Below, in pieces: positions 20,827 to 53,224 of a DNA stretch of 64,000 nt. The stretch comes from an uncultured Clostridia bacterium (lineage in GTDB: Bacteria > Bacillota > Clostridia > Oscillospirales > Ruminococcaceae): NCBI GenBank assembly GCA_944382905.1, contig CALWNU010000037.1:24392-88391 (forward strand), in the 5' to 3' direction. The notes under the pieces were generated by a model. The model was given only the letters and a program-made list of their open reading frames with translations. It was not told the DNA's origin and made no database searches. How positions within the stretch are numbered: the stretch's first letter is position 1; every line of letters starts with the position of its first letter. The position numbers were made by a program, and so were the translations under genes.

Positions 20827-21804
20827 ATGAAGATTTTTATCGATAAAAGCAGCACCACTTCCATCTACCAGCAGCTGGTGGATCAAATTTCGAAAAAGGT
20901 GCAAAGCGGAGAGCTGCCAGCTGGGAAAAAGCTGCCGACCGTCCGGGAGCTTGCCGACCAAACCGGGATCGCCCGCGGCACCGTGAAACACGCCTACGAG
21001 CAGCTGGAACGCAGGGGCGTGATCAAAATGACCCGGGGCAAGGGCACGTTTGTCCGGGAGCAGGCCCAACAGGAAATCAGTTCCAAAGCCCGCGCCATGA
21101 ACGCCATCGACCGGCTGCTGGACGAAATGGAATCCCTTTCCTTCTCCCCGCAGGAAATCCAGATGTTTTTCAACCTCAAGCTGCGGGAACGGATGGACCA
21201 CGACGAAAACGTCTGCATCGTTTTTGTCGACTGTAACCCGGAGACGCTGACCAACATCATCAACCAGATTTCCGCCATCCCCAACATCGAAGCGCATAAG
21301 CTACTTTTGCCCGACGCGTTGCGGGAGCCGTTTGTCATGGATGATTTTGCCGACCTGGTCATCACCACCTCCACCCATATGGGACAGCTCAGCGGCGTGG
21401 TACAGCACAAAGACAAGCTGGTCCAGGTCGTGACGGCGCCCAGCAGCCCCACCGTGGCAAAAATGGCGATGATCGGTGGCAAGACCGTCGGCATTCTCTG
21501 TGCCAGCGAAACTTACGCCCACATCATCCGGCGGAGCATGCAAAACCTGGAACTGCCCTGTCAGGATACCGAAACATACCTGTTTGGCAGCGCCATGAAC
21601 CTGGAAGCCTTTCTCCGGCATAAGGAGGTGCTGATTGTCCCCAACGACTTTTTGTTGTTCTGCAGCCGGGCCGAGGGGGACCTAATTCGCCAAGCTGGCG
21701 CCCAGGGAAAAACCGTGATCCGGTATAATTATCAAATCGACGGCGGCTCATTTTTAAGCGTGCAGGAAAAAATCGAGCTGATCCGTGCGGCAAAATATCT
21801 TTGA
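20827..21804 (+). CDS. GntR-family transcriptional regulator with ~240-aa C-terminal effector domain
   Basis: N-terminal wHTH: SIYQQLVDQISKKVQSGELPAGKKLPTVRELADQTGIARGTVKHAYEQLERRGVI..RGKGTFV. Confidence 0.85.
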   Translation: MKIFIDKSSTTSIYQQLVDQISKKVQSGELPAGKKLPTVRELADQTGIARGTVKHAYEQLERRGVIKMTRGKGTFVREQAQQEISSKARAMNAIDRLLDEMESLSFSPQEIQMFFNLKLRERMDHDENVCIVFVDCNPETLTNIINQISAIPNIEAHKLLLPDALREPFVMDDFADLVITTSTHMGQLSGVVQHKDKLVQVVTAPSSPTVAKMAMIGGKTVGILCASETYAHIIRRSMQNLELPCQDTETYLFGSAMNLEAFLRHKEVLIVPNDFLLFCSRAEGDLIRQAGAQGKTVIRYNYQIDGGSFLSVQEKIELIRAAKYL

Positions 21805-21810
21805 CCATGG

Positions 21811-21850
21811 CAGCGGAGTGGAATTGATCCACTCCGCTGTACTATTTTTA
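21811..21850 (+). terminator. hairpin after the GntR gene
   Basis: CAGCGGAGTGG-N7-CCACTCCGCTG (11 bp) is followed by TACTATTTTTATT; the T-tract is not contiguous with the stem. Confidence 0.5.
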
Positions 21851-21962: not shown

Positions 21963-21991
21963 TTGACAGTTAGCCTTTCTCAGACTAATAT
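21963..21991 (+). promoter_or_regulatory. sigma-A-like promoter of the glutamate mutase operon
   Basis: TTGACA, 17-nt spacer, TAATAT; 52 nt upstream of ATG 22043. Confidence 0.65.
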
Positions 21992-22042: not shown

Positions 22043-22477
22043 ATGGAAAAGAAAACTTTGGTCATGGGCGTCATCGGCGCAGACGTCCATGCAGTTGGCA
22101 ACAAGATCCTCTATCATGCATTTACCGCCGCCGGATTTAACTGTGTGAATCTGGGCGTCATGGTATCGCAGGAGGAATATATCAACGCCGCAATCGAATC
22201 GAATGCAGACGCCATTGTCGTCTCCTCCCTGTACGGCCATGGGGAACTGGATTGCCGCGGGATGCGGGAGAAATGCGACGAAGCAGGCCTGAAAGGCATC
22301 TTGCTGTATGTCGGCGGCAATATCGTCGTTGGCAAGCAGCCTTTCGACGAAGTAGAAAAGCGCTTTAAAGCCATGGGGTTTGACCGCGTATTTGGTCCTG
22401 GCACCCCGCCTGAAACCACGATTGCAGCGCTTTATGAGGATTTGGGTGTACAGCCTCCGGAAGAAACCGAAGAATAA
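22043..22477 (+). CDS. glmS: glutamate mutase (methylaspartate mutase) sigma subunit, B12-binding
   Basis: [23 protein letters not shown].. contains the DxHxxG cobalamin-binding motif. Near full-length resemblance to clostridial MutS/GlmS (..[37 protein letters not shown]..). Confidence 0.95.
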
Positions 22478-22489
22478 GGAGCGCTTGCT

Positions 22490-23872
22490 ATGAAACCAGT
22501 ATTGCTCATTGATTTTGGCAGTACATATACGAAGGTTACCGCCGTCGACGTGGAAAGCGAAGCGCTGCTTGGTACTGCCAGCAGCTACACCACCGTTCAG
22601 ACGGATATCGGCGAAGGGCTGCAAAACGCGCTGAACCTTCTGGAAGAAAAAACCGGAAAGCTGGAATTTGCCGAACGCTATGCTTGCTCCTCTGCGGCGG
22701 GCGGCCTGCGGATGATTACCAGCGGCCTTGTCCCTGAATTGACTGCCGAAGCGGCAAAACAGGCTTCCCTCGGCGCAGGCGCCAAGGTAATTCGCGTCTT
22801 TTCCTACGAATTGACCAAAAAAGATGTGGAAGAGATTGTGCAAAGCCGTCCGGACATGATCCTGCTCACTGGCGGGACCGACGGTGGGAACAGCGAATGC
22901 ATCCTGGCAAATGCGAAACGGCTTTCCATCGTGGAGCCGATCTGCCCGGTAGTCATCGCCGGCAACCGCAACTGTGCGGATGAATGCGCGGAACTGCTGG
23001 ACAAGTGGGAAACCCATGTCTGCGAAAACGTCATGCCGCGGTTTAATGAACTGAATATTGAGCCTGCCCAACAGCAAATCCGGCAGATCTTTTTAAACCG
23101 GATCATCCAAGCCAAAGGGCTGAGCAAGGCGGCCGAACTGATTTCCGGGATTTTAATGCCCACCCCTGCAGCAATGATGGCAGCCATGGAATTGCTGTCT
23201 GAAGGCACCAAAACGGAGCCGGGCATCGGCGAACTGGTTGCGGTGGACCTGGGCGGCGCCACCACGGATGTGTACTCGATTGCAGATGGGATGCCCACCC
23301 AGGCGAACACCATTGTGAAAGGGTTGATGGAACCCTATGCCAAACGCACGGTGGAAGGCGACATTGGCATGCGTTACAGCATTTGGGGCATTGTGGAAGC
23401 CGGCGGGATCGACCGGGTCAGCCAGCTTTCCGGGATCGAACCGCAGCGGGCCAAGGAAATGATCCAATATCTGTCGGAACACACAGACACCTTGCCCCAG
23501 GATGAAGAATGGGAAAACCTGGACTTCGCTTTGGCTTCGCTGGCGGTGGAAACCGCCGTTGCCCGCCATGCGGGCACCATCGAGCAGGTCTACACCCCCA
23601 TGGGCCTGGCCTACTCTCAAAAAGGCAAAGACCTAACGCCGGTCAAGCGGGTCGTCGTAACCGGAGGCGCCATCATCCACACCAAACGCACCGGCCAAAT
23701 TGCGGCACACAGCCTGCAAAATCCCAGCCAGCCCGCTTCCCTGCGGCCAATTGACGCCAAGTTTTTGGTGGACCGCAAATATATCCTGGCGGCCATGGGC
23801 CTGTTGGGACAGTATTACCCGGACATCGCTGTCCGCATTATGAAAAAAGAACTGGTTGAAGCATACGAATAA
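22490..23872 (+). CDS. glmL: glutamate mutase accessory/reactivase-type protein (MutL/GlmL)
   Basis: LLIDFGSTYTKVTAVD is an ASKHA N-terminus; LTGGTDGGN, DLGGATTD. Conserved position between the S and E subunits. Confidence 0.9.
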   Translation: MKPVLLIDFGSTYTKVTAVDVESEALLGTASSYTTVQTDIGEGLQNALNLLEEKTGKLEFAERYACSSAAGGLRMITSGLVPELTAEAAKQASLGAGAKVIRVFSYELTKKDVEEIVQSRPDMILLTGGTDGGNSECILANAKRLSIVEPICPVVIAGNRNCADECAELLDKWETHVCENVMPRFNELNIEPAQQQIRQIFLNRIIQAKGLSKAAELISGILMPTPAAMMAAMELLSEGTKTEPGIGELVAVDLGGATTDVYSIADGMPTQANTIVKGLMEPYAKRTVEGDIGMRYSIWGIVEAGGIDRVSQLSGIEPQRAKEMIQYLSEHTDTLPQDEEWENLDFALASLAVETAVARHAGTIEQVYTPMGLAYSQKGKDLTPVKRVVVTGGAIIHTKRTGQIAAHSLQNPSQPASLRPIDAKFLVDRKYILAAMGLLGQYYPDIAVRIMKKELVEAYE

Positions 23873-23890
23873 GATTACGGAGGTAACCGC

Positions 23891-25342
23891 ATGGAAATCA
23901 AGAACAAACGTCTGACGGATGACGAATTTTATGAAATCCGCAAAACCGTCCTCAATCAATGGCCTACCGGCAAGGACGTCGATCTCGAAGATTCTTTTGC
24001 GTTCCACAAATCCCTTCCCGACAGCAAGGTCTTCAGCAAAAAGCTGGCGGAAGCAAAAGCGAACCGCGTCACCCTGGTACAGCCCAGAGCTGGTGTCGCG
24101 CTTGTCCAAAAACACATTGAGCTGCTGACCTATTTGCAGGATAAAGGCGGCGCCGACTTGCTGCCGACTACCATCGACAGCTACACCCGTCAAAATCGCT
24201 ATAAAGAAGCGGAGGTCGGTATTGCCGAATCCATTAAAACCGGCAAATCCATGCTCAACGGCTTCCCCGCTGTCAACCACGGCGTAGCGGCGGTCCGGCA
24301 GGTCGTCAACGCCATCGACGTCCCGCTGCAGATCCGCCACGGCACCCCGGACGCTCGCTTGCTGACGGAAATTGTCTATGCCGGCGGCTACACCAGCTAT
24401 GAAGGCGGCGGCATTTCCTACAATATCCCCTACGCCAAAAGCGTTCCGCTGGAGCGCACCATTGCTGACTGGCAGTACTGCGACCGCCTGACCGGCATTT
24501 ATGAAGAAGCCGGGATCTCCATCAACCGCGAGCCTTACGGGCCTTTGACCGGCACGCTGGTTCCGCCGAGCATTTCCCACGCAGTCGCCATTATCGAAGC
24601 GCTGCTGGCTGCGGAGCAGGGCGTGAAGAACATCACCGTCGGCTACGGACAGTGCGGCAACCTGGTACAGGATGTGGCGGCGATCCACACGCTGGAAAAA
24701 TTGACTGAAGAATATCTGCATCAGTATGGATACGACGACGTGGTGGTCACCACCGTGCTCCATCAGTGGATGGGCGGCTTCCCGCAGGACGAGGCGCAGG
24801 CATTCGGCGTCATTTCCTGGGGCAGCGCTGCGGCAGCGCTTTCCCATGCGACGAAAGTCATCGTCAAGACCCCGCACGAAGCGATGGGCGTTCCCACCGC
24901 AGAAGCCAACGCGCAGGGCCTGCGCTGCACCAAGCAGGTCATCTCCATGCTGCGTGACCAGTCGTTAGACGAGCACTCTTTGAAAGAAGAAAAAGAGATT
25001 ATCACCGCCGAAACCAAATGCCTGCTGGATAAATGCTTTGAACTGGGCAACGGCGACATTGCGCTGGGTACGGTTCGCGCCTTCCAGGCCGGCGTGCTGG
25101 ATGTTCCGTTTGCTCCTTCCCGCTACAATGCGGGCCAGATGCTGCCGGTACGTGACAATAATGGCGCCGTCCGTATTTTGACCATGGGCAACCTCCCGTT
25201 CACCAAAGAGCTGGTCGACTTTAACCATGCCAAAATCGAAGAGCGCGCCAAGTTTGAAAAACGGAAAGCCTCCTTCCAGATGGCCATCGACGATGTTTAC
25301 GCCATCAGCAAAGGCAGACTGGTCGGCAGACCCAGAGGTTAA
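23891..25342 (+). CDS. glmE: glutamate mutase (methylaspartate mutase) epsilon subunit
   Basis: ..[17 protein letters not shown]...[55 protein letters not shown] match clostridial GlmE/MutE throughout. Confidence 0.95.
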
Positions 25343-25381
25343 CACAATTACAGGCTTAATGATAAAAGGAGTTGCTATCTC

Positions 25382-26626
25382 ATGAAAATCACAAACGTAA
25401 TTTGCTCCAAAGGCAGAACCGGTTTCTTTTTTGATGACCAGCGCGCCATCAAAAAAGGCGCAGTTGCAGACGGGGCCGCTTATGTCGGCCAGCCGGTAAC
25501 TGATGGCTTCACCTCCATTCGGCAAGCGGGCGAAGCGATCTCGGTCATGCTCGTCCTGGAAGACGGGCAGATCGCTTACGGCGATTGCGCCGCTGTCCAG
25601 TATTCCGGTGCAGGCGGGCGCGATCCTCTGTTCTTGGCGGAAGATTTCATCCCCGTCATTGAAAAGGAAATCAAACCCATGCTGGTTGGCCAGGAAGCTG
25701 ACAGCTTCCGTCGTCTGGCTGAAATGGTAGACCATCCGGAAAAAGCGGGCAAAAAGTTCCATACCGCGATTCGTTACGGTGTGACCCAGGCGATTCTGGA
25801 TGCCGTTGCCAAAGCCAAACATAAAATGATGTGCGAAGTGGTCGCGGAAGAATATGGCACCACGGTTTCGGACAAAGAAATCCCGATTTTCACCCAGTCC
25901 GGCGACAACCGCTATGAAAACTCCGACAAGATGATCATCAAGCAGGCCGACGTTCTGCCCCATGCGCTGATCAACAACGTAAAAACCAAACTGGGCGAGC
26001 ATGGCGAGCTGTTGGAAGAATATGTGGCTTGGCTGCGCGACCGTGTGCTGAAACTGCGTACCCGGGACGATTACCTGCCTGTTTTCCACATTGACGTATA
26101 CGGCACCATCGGCGCCGCGTTCGGCAACGACAATTATGAGGCGATGGCCGATTATCTGGCTCGCTTGGAAGAAATCGCAAAACCGTTCCATCTGCGTATC
26201 GAAGGCCCTATGGACGTGGAAGACCGCGAACTGCAAATGAAAGCGCTGGCGGAATTGACCCGTGTTGTGGATGAGCGCGGCATTCATGTAGAGCTTGTCG
26301 CCGACGAGTGGTGCAATACGCTGGAAGACATCAAATACTTTGCCGATCATAAGGCGGGCCATATGGTCCAGATCAAAACCCCGGACCTGGGCGGCATCAA
26401 CAACATCGCAGAAGCGGTGCTGTACTGCAAAGAAAAAGGAATCGGCGCTTACCAGGGCGGTACCTGCAATGAAACCGACCGGTCCGCGCAGGTTTGCGTG
26501 AATATCGCTATGGCGGTACAGCCGGATCAAATCCTGGCAAAACCCGGTATGGGCGTTGACGAAGGGTATATGATCGTTTACAACGAGATGCAGCGTATCC
26601 TGGCGATCCGCAAAGCGTTGAAATAA
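25382..26626 (+). CDS. mal: methylaspartate ammonia-lyase
   Basis: MKI..V.C..G.TGFFFDDQRAIKKGA..DCAAVQYSGAGGRDPLFLA.DFIPVIEKEI..HALINNV..FHIDVYGTIGAAF..PFHLRIEGPMDVEDR..ADEWCNT..KAGHMVQIKTPDLGG matches clostridial MAL (enolase superfamily). Confidence 0.95.
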   Translation: MKITNVICSKGRTGFFFDDQRAIKKGAVADGAAYVGQPVTDGFTSIRQAGEAISVMLVLEDGQIAYGDCAAVQYSGAGGRDPLFLAEDFIPVIEKEIKPMLVGQEADSFRRLAEMVDHPEKAGKKFHTAIRYGVTQAILDAVAKAKHKMMCEVVAEEYGTTVSDKEIPIFTQSGDNRYENSDKMIIKQADVLPHALINNVKTKLGEHGELLEEYVAWLRDRVLKLRTRDDYLPVFHIDVYGTIGAAFGNDNYEAMADYLARLEEIAKPFHLRIEGPMDVEDRELQMKALAELTRVVDERGIHVELVADEWCNTLEDIKYFADHKAGHMVQIKTPDLGGINNIAEAVLYCKEKGIGAYQGGTCNETDRSAQVCVNIAMAVQPDQILAKPGMGVDEGYMIVYNEMQRILAIRKALK

Positions 26627-26641
26627 GGAGGTACTTTCACC

Positions 26642-28000
26642 GTGAAAGAGGAATTCCGTATTTTATCCACTACCGCTATTTTGGGGTATGGCTTCCCCAA
26701 AGAGTCCTTTGACGAAGGGATGAAGCGCAAACCCGACCTGATCGCCGTAGACGCCGGTTCCACCGATCCCGGCCCCTACTATTTGGGCGAAGGCGTTTCC
26801 TTTACCGACCGCGGCGCTGTCAAGCGTGACCTGGAAATCATGATCTGCGCCGGCATCCGGGAAAACATCCCGGTGGTCATCGGCACGGCAGGCGGCTCCG
26901 GTGCAAAACCCCATTTGGAATGGTGCGCCGACATCATCCGGGAAATTGCCAAGGAAAACGATCTGCATTTTAAAATGGCGATGATCCATGCGGATATGGA
27001 CAAAGAAGAAATGAAAAAAGCGCTGGCGGCCGGCAAAATCAGCCCGCTGGATCCGGCGCCCCAGTTGACCGAAGCCGATATTGACGCTACGACGCACATT
27101 GTCGGCCAGATGGGCATCGAGCCGATTATGAAGGCGCTGGACAGCGGCGTCCAGGTTGTACTGGCAGGCCGTGCCTATGACCCGACCGTATTTGCGGCGC
27201 CTGCCATCCGCAAAGGCTATGACAAAGGGCTGGCCATTCACCTGGGCAAAATCCTGGAATGCGCTTCGATCTGCGCCACCCCGGGCAGTGGTTCCGACTG
27301 CATGTTCGGTTACCTGGGCGAGGATTATTTCCGGGTAGAGCCGCTTTCTTCGGTGCGCAAATGCACCACCCTGTCCGTTGCCGCCCATACGCTGTATGAA
27401 AAGACCAATCCTTACATTCTCCCCGGCCCCGGCGGCCATCTGGACCTGACCAATACAACTTTTGAGCAGGATTCGGAAAACACCGTCAAGGTCAAAGGCA
27501 GCCGTTATGTCACCGCGCCCAAATACACCATTAAGCTGGAAGGCGCAAAATGCATTGGATACCGCACGGTTTCTGTTGCCGGTACCCGCGACCCGATTAT
27601 GATCAGCAAAATCGATGACATTGTAGAAGGCGTTCGCGCCCGTGTTGCAGATAACTACCGGGACAAAGGATACCAGTATCATCTGAACTTCACCATCTAC
27701 GGCAAAAACGGCGTCATGGGAAATCTGGAGCCGGTCAAAGACGCCCATCCGCATGAGCTGGGTATCGTGATCGAAGTGGTGGCCGACACCCAGGAACAGG
27801 CGGATACCATCTGCGCTTCCGCGCGTTCCACCATGCTGCACTACGGCTACGAAGGCCGCCGTGCTACCGCCGGCAACCTGGCGTTCCCCTTCTCCCCCAG
27901 CGATTTCCATGCTGGCCGCGTATATGTCTTCAGCATGTACCACATCATCGAAGTGGACGATCCCACCTCGTTGTTCCCCATTGACATTGTCACCCTGTAA
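26642..28000 (+). CDS. DUF1446 (AtuA-like) family protein, function unknown
   Basis: 452 aa; the N-terminus ..ILSTTAILGYGFP..DLIAVDAGSTDPGPYYLG.. resembles the acyclic-terpene-utilisation AtuA family. GTG start 10 nt after AAGGAGG and 15 nt after the mal stop. Confidence 0.75.
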   Translation: MKEEFRILSTTAILGYGFPKESFDEGMKRKPDLIAVDAGSTDPGPYYLGEGVSFTDRGAVKRDLEIMICAGIRENIPVVIGTAGGSGAKPHLEWCADIIREIAKENDLHFKMAMIHADMDKEEMKKALAAGKISPLDPAPQLTEADIDATTHIVGQMGIEPIMKALDSGVQVVLAGRAYDPTVFAAPAIRKGYDKGLAIHLGKILECASICATPGSGSDCMFGYLGEDYFRVEPLSSVRKCTTLSVAAHTLYEKTNPYILPGPGGHLDLTNTTFEQDSENTVKVKGSRYVTAPKYTIKLEGAKCIGYRTVSVAGTRDPIMISKIDDIVEGVRARVADNYRDKGYQYHLNFTIYGKNGVMGNLEPVKDAHPHELGIVIEVVADTQEQADTICASARSTMLHYGYEGRRATAGNLAFPFSPSDFHAGRVYVFSMYHIIEVDDPTSLFPIDIVTL

Positions 28001-28015
28001 GGAGGAGAGATTGCG

Positions 28016-28333
28016 ATGAAAACCAAATTGACCGATATCACTGATGTTGTGCGCAGCAAGAACTCTGGTCCTTATGAGCTGACGCTGGACATCATGTTCA
28101 AAACCTTTGAAGATTTTGAAAAGGTCTGCGCCGCCAAGGCGATCAATGAAAAATTGATTTGCGACCTTTATAAAATCACGCCGGATCAGATTATCAACAT
28201 CATTGAATTCAAACCGGCGAAATCCATCAAGGTAACCATCAAACGGCCCATCTGCTCCGGCGATTTGGGAGAGACCGACGTATACGGCGCCCAGCAGCAT
28301 GCGCCTCTGTTGGATATCGTACTGGATCTGTAA
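28016..28333 (+). CDS. DUF4387 family small protein (usual partner of DUF1446)
   Basis: 105 aa, ..VRSKNSGPYELTLDIMF..GDLGETDVYGAQQHAPL.. . GGAGGAG RBS; 15-nt gap after the preceding gene. Confidence 0.7.
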   Translation: MKTKLTDITDVVRSKNSGPYELTLDIMFKTFEDFEKVCAAKAINEKLICDLYKITPDQIINIIEFKPAKSIKVTIKRPICSGDLGETDVYGAQQHAPLLDIVLDL

Positions 28334-28370
28334 AAGATTTCTGGACAGAAAAGGGATTTTCCATTAGAAT

Positions 28371-28400
28371 AAAGGTGGGCGTTGCCGCCCACCTTTTTTC
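28371..28400 (+). terminator. terminator ending the glutamate mutase operon
   Basis: AAAGGTGGGCG-ttgc-CGCCCACCTTT (11 bp) followed by TTTCTT. Confidence 0.85.
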
Positions 28401-28470: not shown

Positions 28471-29400
28471 ATGCCATATTCCGCTCGAATGCAACAAAGC
28501 CATTTATACAGCGTTTACTTCGCCCCCAGGGGGTTGACCCGGATGGCGGATCTGGGAATGCAGATTGCCCAGCAGTATCTCAGCCCTTTTGATAAGCTGA
28601 TTGGCATTATTGGGGAGGCCGGTTCCGGCAAGAGCATGCTAGTCAAGGGCATGTTCCCGGGGCTGGAACTGACCAACGACGACGAAGGAGTGAATATCCG
28701 GCCGCTTCCGCTGCTTCAATTGGATACCGGCGCTTTTTACAGCCCGCACACCTATCATCTGGACGTCCGGTTCGAATCGGCTTTTACGCAGATGTGGCAG
28801 CTGAAAGATGCGATTTTAGAAGCCATTGACGCTGGCAAACGGGTTGTGGTGGAACATTTCGATCTGATTTACCCGATCCTTGGGGTCAATGCCCACCTGC
28901 TGATTGGTGTGGGCAGCGAAATCATCGTCACCCGGCCCAATATGTTTGGCCCGGAGCCGCAGGACATCGCAGACAGCGTATTCCACACGATCCATGACCG
29001 AAAAATGGCCCATTCGGCGGAGGATCTTTGCGGCCATATTCTGGAAGCCAATGGGATCACCCGGTTTGCTCACCGGGACGTCAAACACGGGTTTATCTTG
29101 GTATTCGACGAAAAGCCAGACCTCGATCTGAGGGCTCTGGAGATGGACGCCATGGCAGCCATCCAGATGGACCTGCCCATCTCCTATGTGGACGATAAGC
29201 ATATTTCCATCGGCAACGATCTGTATCACTGTACTGGTCCGCGGATGCATGTGGGCTCTACCGGCGAAATCAAGAATTTCGCCCTGCTGCATGAATTTAT
29301 GGAAGATCCGATTACCAAAGAATACTATCTGGTCGGTGTGGTCAGCTCCAAGGGTGAACTGCGGGCCAACGACCTGAACCGGATCCATGTGGAAGACTAG
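28471..29400 (+). CDS. uncharacterised P-loop NTPase-like protein
   Basis: 309 aa with Walker A GEAGSGKS and a possible Walker B (RVVVEHFD). Strong RBS AAAGGAGG. No family recognised. Confidence 0.65.
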   Translation: MPYSARMQQSHLYSVYFAPRGLTRMADLGMQIAQQYLSPFDKLIGIIGEAGSGKSMLVKGMFPGLELTNDDEGVNIRPLPLLQLDTGAFYSPHTYHLDVRFESAFTQMWQLKDAILEAIDAGKRVVVEHFDLIYPILGVNAHLLIGVGSEIIVTRPNMFGPEPQDIADSVFHTIHDRKMAHSAEDLCGHILEANGITRFAHRDVKHGFILVFDEKPDLDLRALEMDAMAAIQMDLPISYVDDKHISIGNDLYHCTGPRMHVGSTGEIKNFALLHEFMEDPITKEYYLVGVVSSKGELRANDLNRIHVED

Positions 29401-29410
29401 GAGGCGCGAA

Positions 29411-29941
29411 ATGGACAAAAAAAATGCATTTGGGTTAATTCATATCTACTGTGGCGACGGGAAAGGAAAAACCACCGCTGCGGTGGGGCTTTGCGTGCGG
29501 GCCAGCGGAAGAGGGAACAAATGCCTGTGGACTTCCTTTTTGAAGGATTACGATTCCGGGGAGTTTTTCGGGCAGCTTCCGTTTACTCTCTACCGCGGAG
29601 AACCCGTCCGCCAATTTGTGTTCACCATGACGGAAGAACAGAAGCAAGCCACTGCACAGGAACATACCAAACGGCTTCAGGCAGTGTTTGACAAAGCGGC
29701 CGCCGAAGGGTTCGACCTGCTGGTGCTGGACGAATCCATCGCTTCGTGCAACCTGGGGCTGATCCCTTTGGAATTGCTGGTCCAATTGCTCAAGGAAAAG
29801 CCCGCCGGGTTGGAGGTGGTGCTGACCGGCCGCGATCCCAAGCCGGAACTGGTGGAGTTGGCGCATTATGTCAGCGAGATCCGCCCGTTGAAGCATCCCT
29901 ACGACAGCGGCATCCCTAGCCGGGAAGGGATTGAAAACTAA
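29411..29941 (+). CDS. cobO: cob(I)yrinic acid a,c-diamide / corrinoid adenosyltransferase (CobO/BtuR type)
   Basis: IHIYCGDGKGKTTAAVGL P-loop, ..LLVLDE.. and ..E.....HPYD.G are CobA/CobO family motifs. ATG 29411 lies 10 nt after the upstream stop. Confidence 0.85.
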   Translation: MDKKNAFGLIHIYCGDGKGKTTAAVGLCVRASGRGNKCLWTSFLKDYDSGEFFGQLPFTLYRGEPVRQFVFTMTEEQKQATAQEHTKRLQAVFDKAAAEGFDLLVLDESIASCNLGLIPLELLVQLLKEKPAGLEVVLTGRDPKPELVELAHYVSEIRPLKHPYDSGIPSREGIEN

Positions 29942-51493: not shown

Positions 51494-53224
51494 TTGTTCG
51501 TGGCGATCAATGCAAAGTATATTCATTCCAATCTTGCCGTGCGGTATTTGAAGCGGTATGCCGCTCCTGCGCTGGAGAATCCGCCGCAGGTGCTGGAATG
51601 CACCATCAACCACCGCGCTGACTGGATTTTGGAGGAAATCTTCCGCTGCGCGCCGGACGTGGTTTTGTTCTCCACCTACCTTTGGAATGTGACGCTGGTG
51701 TGCCAATTGGCAGCGGAATACCGCAAGCTGCATCCGGAAGCGGTCATTGGCGTTGGCGGTCCGCAGGTCAGCTATGAATCGGCGGCTTTTCTGGCCCAAA
51801 ACCCCGCGCTGGACCTGGTCATCCGCGGCGAAGGGGAACAGGCCGTCCGCCAATTGCTGGAGGCCATCCAGGCCCGGCAGGACTGGCGGTCCCTGTTGGG
51901 GCTAACCGTGCGGGACGGCTCGCAGATCCGGGAAAATCCGCCCCAGCCGCCCCTGGATCTTGCTTTGCTTCCTTTCCCGTACGAACCGGATTTTTCCGAT
52001 GCGCCGGACCAGATCAAATACTATGAATCCTCCCGGGGCTGCCCATTTCAATGTCAGTACTGCCTTTCGTCGATTGAACGCGGGGTACGCAATGTCCCAC
52101 TGGAGCGGGTTTTTGCGGATTTGACGCTTTTTTTAAATGCCAAAGTCCGGCAGGTCAAATTCGTAGACCGCACCTTTAACTGCGACATCCGCCGCGCCAT
52201 TGCGATCTGGCGGTTCCTGCGGGATCATGACAATGGCGTGACCAATTTCCATTTTGAAATTACGGCGGAACTGCTCACCCGGGATGCGCTGGATTTTCTT
52301 GGCACCATCCGCCCGGAGCAGTTTCAGTTTGAAATCGGCGTCCAGTCCACCAATCCCCGCACGCTGCAGGCGGTCCGCCGGCAAAACGACTGGCCTGCGC
52401 TTTGCGCGATTGTCCGGGAAATCAAGTCCTTCCGAAACATTCACCAGCATCTGGATTTGATTGCCGGTCTGCCTTATGAAAATTACGACTCGTTCCACCG
52501 CTCTTTTAACGACGTGTACGCCTTGGAGCCGGAACAGCTCCAGCTGGGATTTTTGAAAATTCTAAAAGGATCCGGCCTGTGCCGCGACCAGGAAAAATAC
52601 GGGCTGGTCTACCGGGACTATCCCCCATTTGAAATCCTATTCACCCCCGCCCTCCCCTTCCAGGATGCGCTGCGGCTGAAAGCGGTGGAGGAAATGGTAG
52701 AGCTTTATTACAACAGCGGTCGGTTCGTCCATGCGCTGCGATGGCTTTTTTCCATTCTGGACGACCCGTTCGCCTTCTATCAGGCGTTGGGAGAGCGCTA
52801 TGTAGCGCAGCAGTATCCCGCCCGCGGGATGACACTGGATCAGCGGTACGCATTCTTTTACCAGTTCTGCGCGCAAATCCCCTCGGTGGACGCTGGGCAG
52901 CTGGCGGAATACCTCAAACTGGATTACTGCCTGCATCAGCGGCCAAAACGCCGGCAGGAATGGTTTGGGTCCGCCTGCGCGCCTGTTTCGCGCCAGCAAT
53001 GCCTGGCGCTATTGGCCCAGCCGTCTTTCCGGGAGCGGTATTTGCCCGGCGACGAAACCGCCGATCCCAAACAGCTGTATAAACTGCTTGATTTTGAATC
53101 TTTCTGTCTGGATGTGCTCACAGGGGAAGCAAAGCCCGTTGTGCTGCTTTTAGACTACCGCCGGCGGGATCTTTTGGGAAACGCTCTGGCCCTGCCAGTT
53201 GTCCTGCCAGCTGATTCAGATTGA
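51494..53224 (+). CDS. B12-binding domain radical SAM protein with DUF4080-like C-terminus
   Basis: ..AINAKYIHSNLAVRYL.. N-terminus, ESSRGCPFQCQYC (CxxxCxxC), long helical C-terminal extension. The start codon (TTG 51494 / GTG 51500) is uncertain. Confidence 0.8.
   Translation: MFVAINAKYIHSNLAVRYLKRYAAPALENPPQVLECTINHRADWILEEIFRCAPDVVLFSTYLWNVTLVCQLAAEYRKLHPEAVIGVGGPQVSYESAAFLAQNPALDLVIRGEGEQAVRQLLEAIQARQDWRSLLGLTVRDGSQIRENPPQPPLDLALLPFPYEPDFSDAPDQIKYYESSRGCPFQCQYCLSSIERGVRNVPLERVFADLTLFLNAKVRQVKFVDRTFNCDIRRAIAIWRFLRDHDNGVTNFHFEITAELLTRDALDFLGTIRPEQFQFEIGVQSTNPRTLQAVRRQNDWPALCAIVREIKSFRNIHQHLDLIAGLPYENYDSFHRSFNDVYALEPEQLQLGFLKILKGSGLCRDQEKYGLVYRDYPPFEILFTPALPFQDALRLKAVEEMVELYYNSGRFVHALRWLFSILDDPFAFYQALGERYVAQQYPARGMTLDQRYAFFYQFCAQIPSVDAGQLAEYLKLDYCLHQRPKRRQEWFGSACAPVSRQQCLALLAQPSFRERYLPGDETADPKQLYKLLDFESFCLDVLTGEAKPVVLLLDYRRRDLLGNALALPVVLPADSD

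Follow-up and report, generated by a model that had tools for sequence, protein, structure and literature searches.

The 64,000-nucleotide (nt) stretch of DNA analysed here, hereafter the window, comes from an uncultured Clostridia bacterium of the Ruminococcaceae (assembly GCA_944382905.1, contig CALWNU010000037.1, positions 24,392 to 88,391 of the forward strand). It carries a glutamate mutase and methylaspartase operon that ends in an AtuA/DUF1446 gene and a DUF4387 gene, referred to here as cmlA and cmlB, which are the subject of this report. The six genes glmS-glmL-glmE-mal-cmlA-cmlB form a tight operon on the + strand (22043-28333), with successive gaps from glmS to cmlB of 12, 18, 39, 15, and 15 nt (Table 1). 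A Shine-Dalgarno (SD)-like sequence precedes every gene of the operon and reads AAGGAGG before both cmlA and cmlB. The first four genes match curated equivalog models with expect values (E) of 2e-66 to 6e-237. An earlier note on this DNA had described the six genes as a tight operon with their own SD sequences, gaps of 12-39 nt and a terminator at 28371-28400, and the map of open reading frames (ORFs) bears this out. The single promoter it placed at 21963-21991 fares less well. A TTGACA-17-TAATAT site is present there but is plausible only, because the scan overall returned 12 sites against 7.2 +/- 3.0 in shuffles and so is not clearly above chance. The GntR gene upstream (20827-21804) is closed by its own terminator (21810-21840) and is likely the operon's regulator. 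A minus-strand ORF of 545 amino acids (aa) at 26663-28300 mirrors the coding strand and was rejected as non-coding.

Table 1. Features of the cmlAB operon and its flanks, with positions in the window.
Feature	Position	Strand	Evidence
GntR-family transcriptional regulator	20827..21804	+	PF00392, E 1e-16
Promoter-like site TTGACA-17-TAATAT, 5' of glmS	21963..21991	+	Consensus scan, 10/12 matches; plausible only
glmS, glutamate (methylaspartate) mutase B12-binding subunit S	22043..22477	+	NF002612, E 2e-66; PF02310
glmL/mutL, glutamate mutase accessory (reactivating) protein	22490..23872	+	NF040745, E 3e-193; PF13941, E 2e-172
glmE, glutamate mutase catalytic subunit E	23891..25342	+	TIGR01503, E 6e-237
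mal, 3-methylaspartate ammonia-lyase	25382..26626	+	TIGR01502, E 3e-185
cmlA, AtuA/DUF1446 family, 452 aa, GTG start, SD AAGGAGG	26642..28000	+	PF07287; 9ERQ_A/9EVF_A homology
cmlB, DUF4387, 105 aa, SD AAGGAGG	28016..28333	+	PF14330; 9ERQ_B homology
Intrinsic-terminator-like hairpin (11 bp stem, 7 GC pairs) and T-run after cmlB	28371..28400	+	
hyp309, conserved 309-aa protein	28471..29400	+	Homolog in 55/80 loci; predicted fold
CobA/BtuR-type ATP:corrinoid adenosyltransferase	29387..29941	+	PF02572, E 9e-49

Searches with profile hidden Markov models confirm the DUF1446 and DUF4387 family assignments that had been proposed, as both proteins score above the Pfam gathering thresholds. The 452-aa protein matches PF07287 (AtuA) at E 3e-25 (89.3 bits against a cut-off of 22.8) in two stretches, and the 105-aa protein matches PF14330 (DUF4387) over its full length at E 3e-39 (134 bits against a cut-off of 27). 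No NCBIfam model matches either protein. As the best Pfam stretch of CmlA covers only residues 78-211, the protein represents a divergent branch of PF07287. The family is named after AtuA of Pseudomonas, which belongs to acyclic terpene utilisation (atu). CmlA shares this Pfam family (89 bits vs. 22.8), but its context is glutamate fermentation and not the catabolism of terpenoid acyl-coenzyme A (CoA). AtuA itself is not known to have an assigned reaction.

A sequence search of the PDB matches both window proteins to the two chains of 9ERQ and 9EVF. Residues 3-442 of the 452 in CmlA align with chain A (3-440 of 456 in the PDB chain), with E 4e-169 and 59% identity (260/440); for CmlB and chain B the alignment spans residues 1-104 of the 105, with E 3e-31 and 52% identity (54/104). 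The PDB calls the two chains "Citramalate lyase, subunit A (cmlA)" and "subunit B (cmlB)", and 9EVF, released 2025-10-08, is titled "Citramalate lyase - ADP - pyruvate complex" (ADP, adenosine diphosphate). This homology suggests, with a probability of roughly 85%, that the window pair encodes the two subunits of a CmlAB-type citramalate lyase, which would cleave citramalate to pyruvate and acetate. Matches of CmlB to transcription activator-like effectors were dismissed as repeat-driven noise, with zero stretches above threshold.

The predicted structure of the large subunit agrees with this assignment. An AlphaFold2 model of window CmlA reached a predicted local distance difference test (pLDDT) score of 83 and a predicted template modelling score of 0.78. 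Its alignment consisted of 14 sequences, since protein searches returned almost only sequences of >=92% identity, and its quality is adequate. Foldseek comparison of this predicted model, not an experimental structure, gave 9evf_A as the sole significant PDB match, with template modelling (TM) scores of 0.90/0.90 and E 3.5e-62. The next-best match reached only E 0.02, so the CmlA fold is otherwise unrepresented in the PDB. Around 150 columns are invariant across CmlA of the window, Prevotella, E. coli, and Klebsiella; they take in every Gly-rich motif, and the motifs DAGSxDPGPxYLG, GTAGGSG, GKILECA, PGSGSDC, and YGKNGVMG are among them. The low-confidence loops of the model (40-54 and 211-217) coincide with the invariant Gly-rich DAGSxDPGPxYLG and PGSGSDC motifs and probably order upon ligand binding. 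The AtuA family is graded into tiers of 57-65%, 42-45%, and 34-39% identity. Window CmlA itself has 96%-identical counterparts in metagenome-assembled genomes (MAGs) from mouse and human gut, and sequences reported as 100% identical occur on several public contigs.

The reaction and the kind of enzyme are already known, with structures public and the enzyme already in synthetic-pathway use. The earlier note had presented the pair as a candidate for an undescribed step, in a family of no established biochemical function. That description is overtaken by 9ERQ and 9EVF, by a 2026 preprint which uses the enzyme, and by a study that noted the locus in 2015 (PMC4682846). In the latter, Kronen and Berg reported a DUF1446 gene downstream of mal in Enterobacteriaceae and Dictyoglomus, which is often misannotated as methylaspartase. 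Citrate lyase, isocitrate lyase, and methylisocitrate lyase of E. coli O157:H7 gave no detectable citramalate lyase activity, and the fate of citramalate was left as a question (PMC4682846). In the 2026 preprint, an acetyl-CoA auxotroph supplied with cmlAB shows growth that depends on mesaconate. Curing of the plasmid abolishes this growth, and isotope labelling confirmed the route. Mesaconate use required E. coli FumA besides Cml, and CmlAB is said to need no CoA and to use the free acid directly, with citramalate lyase activity reported for the R. planticola ortholog only (2026 preprint).

A survey of 80 related loci, with up to 10 kb on each side, places the pair in the same setting well beyond this genome. 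The loci span Bacillota, Bacteroidota, Spirochaetota, Chloroflexota (Flexilinea), and Desulfobacterota. cmlB directly follows cmlA in 78 of them, both exceptions being cut by contig ends, and mal lies directly upstream of cmlA in 71. glmE is found in 65 loci, glmL in 61, and glmS in 56, with a GntR homolog upstream of glmS in 21. The expectation that the pair would co-occur with glm and mal genes outside this genome is therefore upheld, with mal upstream in 71/80 loci from five or more phyla. In 23/80 loci there is a split class I fumarase, resembling the MesAB mesaconase. Prevotella nigrescens and E. coli share the gene order, and in both of them a class I fumarase gene lies a few genes farther downstream. 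The mal-cmlA pair is found in 1123 of 5426 complete E. coli genomes.

Some loci depart from this arrangement. Four lack glm and mal (L066, L076, L077, L083) and belong to Desulfoluna, two Desulforamulus, and one Bacillota MAG. In three of these cmlAB adjoins mesA/mesB-like fumarase genes, and in the Desulfoluna locus cmlAB stands alone. This suggests a stand-alone module for mesaconate/citramalate utilisation. Separately, IncF-type Klebsiella plasmids, such as Klebsiella pneumoniae plasmid NZ_CP055107 (L002, 8989-17048), carry a 60%-identical cmlAB in a LysR-controlled operon without glm or mal. Besides a class I fumarase, this operon encodes two aldehyde dehydrogenases, an alcohol dehydrogenase, and an enzyme resembling glucose 1-dehydrogenase.

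Among characterised systems, the closest counterpart of the pair is CmlAB of Raoultella planticola/Enterobacteriaceae (9ERQ, 9EVF), likewise an AtuA-family large subunit and a DUF4387 small subunit encoded by two genes. Identity is 59%/52% over the full length and the window CmlA model has a TM score of 0.90 to 9EVF_A. Both pairs lie directly downstream of mal in a glmS-glmL-glmE-mal operon, with no genes handling acyl carrier protein (ACP) or CoA nearby. The window host differs in being a gut member of the Bacillota and not a proteobacterium. The E. coli cluster also has gltP, fumD, and LysR, whereas the window cluster instead has GntR, hyp309, and cobA. The two genes share 4 nt in E. coli and 17 nt in Klebsiella, an overlap that fits a stoichiometric CmlA-CmlB complex, whereas in the window they do not overlap and are 15 nt apart.

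The classical citramalate lyase of Clostridium tetanomorphum and relatives, CitDEF with CitC/CitX/CitG (EC 4.1.3.22 / 4.1.3.6), shares its pathway position and net reaction with CmlAB but is unrelated to it in sequence. This classical enzyme operates via an acetyl-thioester on the prosthetic group of an ACP. With the six E. coli K-12 proteins as tblastn queries (E <= 1e-3), no citC/D/E/F/X/G homolog was found in the window or the 80 loci. The earlier note had anticipated that the pair would anticorrelate with both a citEF-like lyase and a fumarase-like mesaconase. The first part stands, as citEF occurs in 0/80 loci, but the second does not, since class I fumarase genes accompany the pair in 23/80 loci, as they do in Prevotella and E. 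coli. Taken together, the absence of citEF and the co-occurrence of fumarase indicate that CmlAB replaces the classical ACP-dependent lyase and works alongside a fumarase-type mesaconase.

Isocitrate lyase and 2-methylisocitrate lyase, of the phosphoenolpyruvate mutase superfamily, resemble CmlAB by analogy only, in that a free hydroxy-di/tricarboxylate is cleaved without a thioester. An isocitrate lyase-like fold for CmlA was rejected, as Foldseek returned nothing beyond 9EVF at E below 0.02. Furthermore, enzymes of this type use no ADP, whereas the solved CmlAB complex contains it.

Across these comparisons, the window pair shows both subunit homologies, the CmlA fold, the adjacency of the two genes, and the association with glutamate mutase and methylaspartase that characterise CmlAB. 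It does not qualify as a CitDEF-type lyase or as a class I fumarase-type mesaconase, and Pfam detects no fumarase domain in either protein.

From homology and context, we infer the following pathway for the window organism. Glutamate mutase (GlmS/GlmE, serviced by GlmL) would convert glutamate to 3-methylaspartate, from which methylaspartase (Mal) would form mesaconate. A class I fumarase-type mesaconase, presumably encoded outside the window, would then hydrate mesaconate to (S)-citramalate. Finally, the predicted CmlAB heteromer would cleave citramalate directly to pyruvate and acetate. This would be a retro-aldol cleavage of free (S)-citramalate with no thioester carrier, and would dispense with an acyl-carrier subunit, a CoA-derived prosthetic group, and the activating enzymes CitC/X/G. 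The same substrate, reaction, and heteromer formation are expected in the window organism from its similarity to the solved enzyme. The classical citramalate lyase, which completes the methylaspartate pathway, has the same net reaction and forms pyruvate and acetate from (S)-citramalate (PMC4682846).

The invariant GKILECA, PGSGSDC, and RSTxLHYGY motifs of CmlA hold Cys, His, Lys, Glu, and Arg residues. Cleavage of a free acid requires a stabilised acetate alpha-carbanion, and isocitrate lyases stabilise their carbanion via Mg2+ and a cysteine acid. As both ADP and pyruvate are bound in 9EVF, a nucleotide site is part of CmlAB. The role of the nucleotide could be catalytic, for example through a transient acyl phosphate that is regenerated, or allosteric or structural. 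If the nucleotide does take part in catalysis, this would be unusual for a C-C lyase.

Several observations weigh against the assignment as a citramalate lyase. Support for the function derives from an ortholog of the Enterobacteriaceae with 59% identity, and not from the window protein or any member from the Bacillota. Details of the reaction rest on PDB titles and one preprint, and a primary biochemical paper was not found in the literature searched. The 64-kb window also lacks a gene for the mesaconase on which the supply of citramalate depends. In addition, the Klebsiella plasmid pair, at 60% identity, lies in a different context of aldehyde/alcohol dehydrogenases and a class I fumarase. 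This difference in context at such identity means that family members may be fed by other routes, and their substrate range could differ.

The last point leads to the alternative that survives best, although it is unlikely, namely that the pair is a lyase of the CmlAB family but acts physiologically on another 2-hydroxy-dicarboxylate, such as malate, citrate, or methylmalate, instead of (S)-citramalate. The AtuA family is broad and its identity tiers are graded, and the Klebsiella copy in its dehydrogenase-rich operon without glm or mal is consistent with such diversity. However, window cmlA directly follows mal, as the enterobacterial genes do, and from this context citramalate is predicted to be the one pathway intermediate left without an enzyme. 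With its class I fumarase, the Klebsiella operon may itself converge on mesaconate/citramalate. Together with the loci without glm and mal, the Klebsiella plasmids suggest that other routes can feed the same end-module from mesaconate through citramalate to pyruvate.

The absence of a mesaconase from the window raises a second alternative. Tblastn with class I fumarases of Prevotella, E. coli, and Klebsiella found none in the 64 kb, and Pfam scans of the ~50 ORFs revealed no other hydratase candidate. Together with the negative citCDEFXG searches, this agrees with the earlier observation that neither the classical mesaconase nor citramalate lyase is encoded in the window. The remaining ORFs are housekeeping genes (aromatic amino-acid biosynthesis, IleRS, Ppx/Ppk, PNP, MgtE, PASTA kinase, PriA, Def, Obg, and the like). 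The pair could thus be read as an alternative, fumarase-independent mesaconase, converting mesaconate to citramalate and filling the hydratase gap. The 57/80 related loci without a class I fumarase within 10 kb point the same way. All-against-all clustering of ORFs from the 80 loci gave no recurrent neighbour other than MesAB as a hydratase candidate.

Nonetheless, this second alternative is very improbable. The PDB entry of the solved homolog presents a lyase with the cleavage product pyruvate bound, and MesAB-type fumarase genes share a cluster with cmlAB in 23/80 loci, Prevotella, and E. coli, where they would be redundant if CmlAB were the hydratase. Moreover, FumA was needed besides Cml for mesaconate use in E. 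coli (2026 preprint). A distant fumarase gene can also supply the step, because housekeeping class I fumarases are promiscuous mesaconases (PMC4682846). Hence, where the earlier note had left the pair as an alternative hydratase or lyase acting on a C5-dicarboxylate, the lyase is retained, on the homology of both subunits and the absence of citEF from the 80 loci, and the hydratase is not supported, given the co-occurrence of fumarase in 23/80. As none lies in the window, the mesaconase that serves the proposed citramalate lyase is most likely encoded elsewhere in the genome, where a distant housekeeping class I fumarase may suffice for mesaconate hydration. In two relatives with 77-81% CmlA identity (L010, L011), mesAB is found just upstream of GntR, at the position occupied by ppk in the window lineage.

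The notion that the pair has no pathway role, being an AtuA-like remnant or hitch-hiker that follows mal by chance, draws on the generic family name and the partial Pfam coverage of CmlA, but is effectively refuted by the synteny survey (the arrangement is kept in at least five phyla, with mal upstream in 71/80 loci), by both ORFs being undisrupted and matching the solved proteins over their full length, and by the strong SD sequences and 15-nt spacing of both genes.

The value of the citramalate lyase assignment lies mainly in annotation. Pfam, NCBIfam, and RefSeq label the family of the pair as "AtuA family", "DUF4387", or, wrongly, "3-methylaspartate ammonia-lyase". Re-annotation would improve reconstructions of gut amino-acid fermentation to acetate, pyruvate, and butyrate. 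It would also present CmlAB, not the textbook CitDEF complex, as a widespread solution for citramalate cleavage. Among public annotations, some entries for CmlA homologs (P0116, P0120) are named '3-methylaspartate ammonia-lyase', and in RefSeq E. coli genomes of September 2026 cmlA is still an 'acyclic terpene utilization AtuA family protein'.

A further conserved gene lies beyond cmlB. The earlier note had taken the DUF1446 and DUF4387 genes as the last two of the cluster, but the terminator is followed by conserved hyp309 (28471-29400), a homolog of which accompanies the cluster on the same strand in 55/80 loci. Since hyp309 is absent from the four loci without glm and mal, it tracks glm/mal and not cmlAB alone. 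It is 44% identical to a Prevotella gene between cmlB and the mesaconase genes. A 314-aa hypothetical protein upstream of glmS in E. coli was considered as its counterpart and rejected as not homologous.

hyp309 is the most novel item of the neighbourhood. No Pfam or NCBIfam family scores above threshold against it. It has more than 4000 relatives and an NCBI name derived from a sub-threshold tRNA_SAD match; homologs are sometimes named 'lantibiotic ABC transporter'. A structural model of moderate confidence (pLDDT 71) matched 1htw (TsaE, E 3e-5) and 2e1b (AlaX-M, E 2e-4) in Foldseek. The protein thus appears to join a TsaE/YjeE-like P-loop ATPase half to an AlaX/ThrRS-editing-like half, and in the model both halves resemble proteins related to transfer RNA (tRNA). 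Among its invariant positions are the Walker A motif (GEAGSGKS) and H181/H201/C254/H260. It is possible, albeit doubtful, that the conserved module extends past DUF4387 and that hyp309 is an undescribed accessory factor of the methylaspartate pathway. Speculatively, based on the modelled fold, it may trans-edit tRNA mischarged with the aspartate analogue 3-methylaspartate. An equally speculative role for its ATPase would be to service the B12 enzyme together with cobA, whose first 14 nt coincide with the end of the hyp309 gene.

The CobA adenosyltransferase would supply adenosylcobalamin for glutamate mutase. A cobA homolog neighbours the cluster in only 4/80 loci, and the E. coli cluster carries cobO. 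A second cobalamin-dependent enzyme in the window is a B12-binding radical S-adenosylmethionine protein with a DUF4080 domain (51494-53224, +), with no apparent operon link. Between cmlB and hyp309, a promoter-like TGGACA-17-TAGAAT site (28342-28370, +) lies immediately before the 5' arm of the terminator hairpin of cmlB (28371-28396) and could be due to chance. Transcripts from this site would start inside the hairpin and escape termination, and therefore could give hyp309-cobA their own expression.

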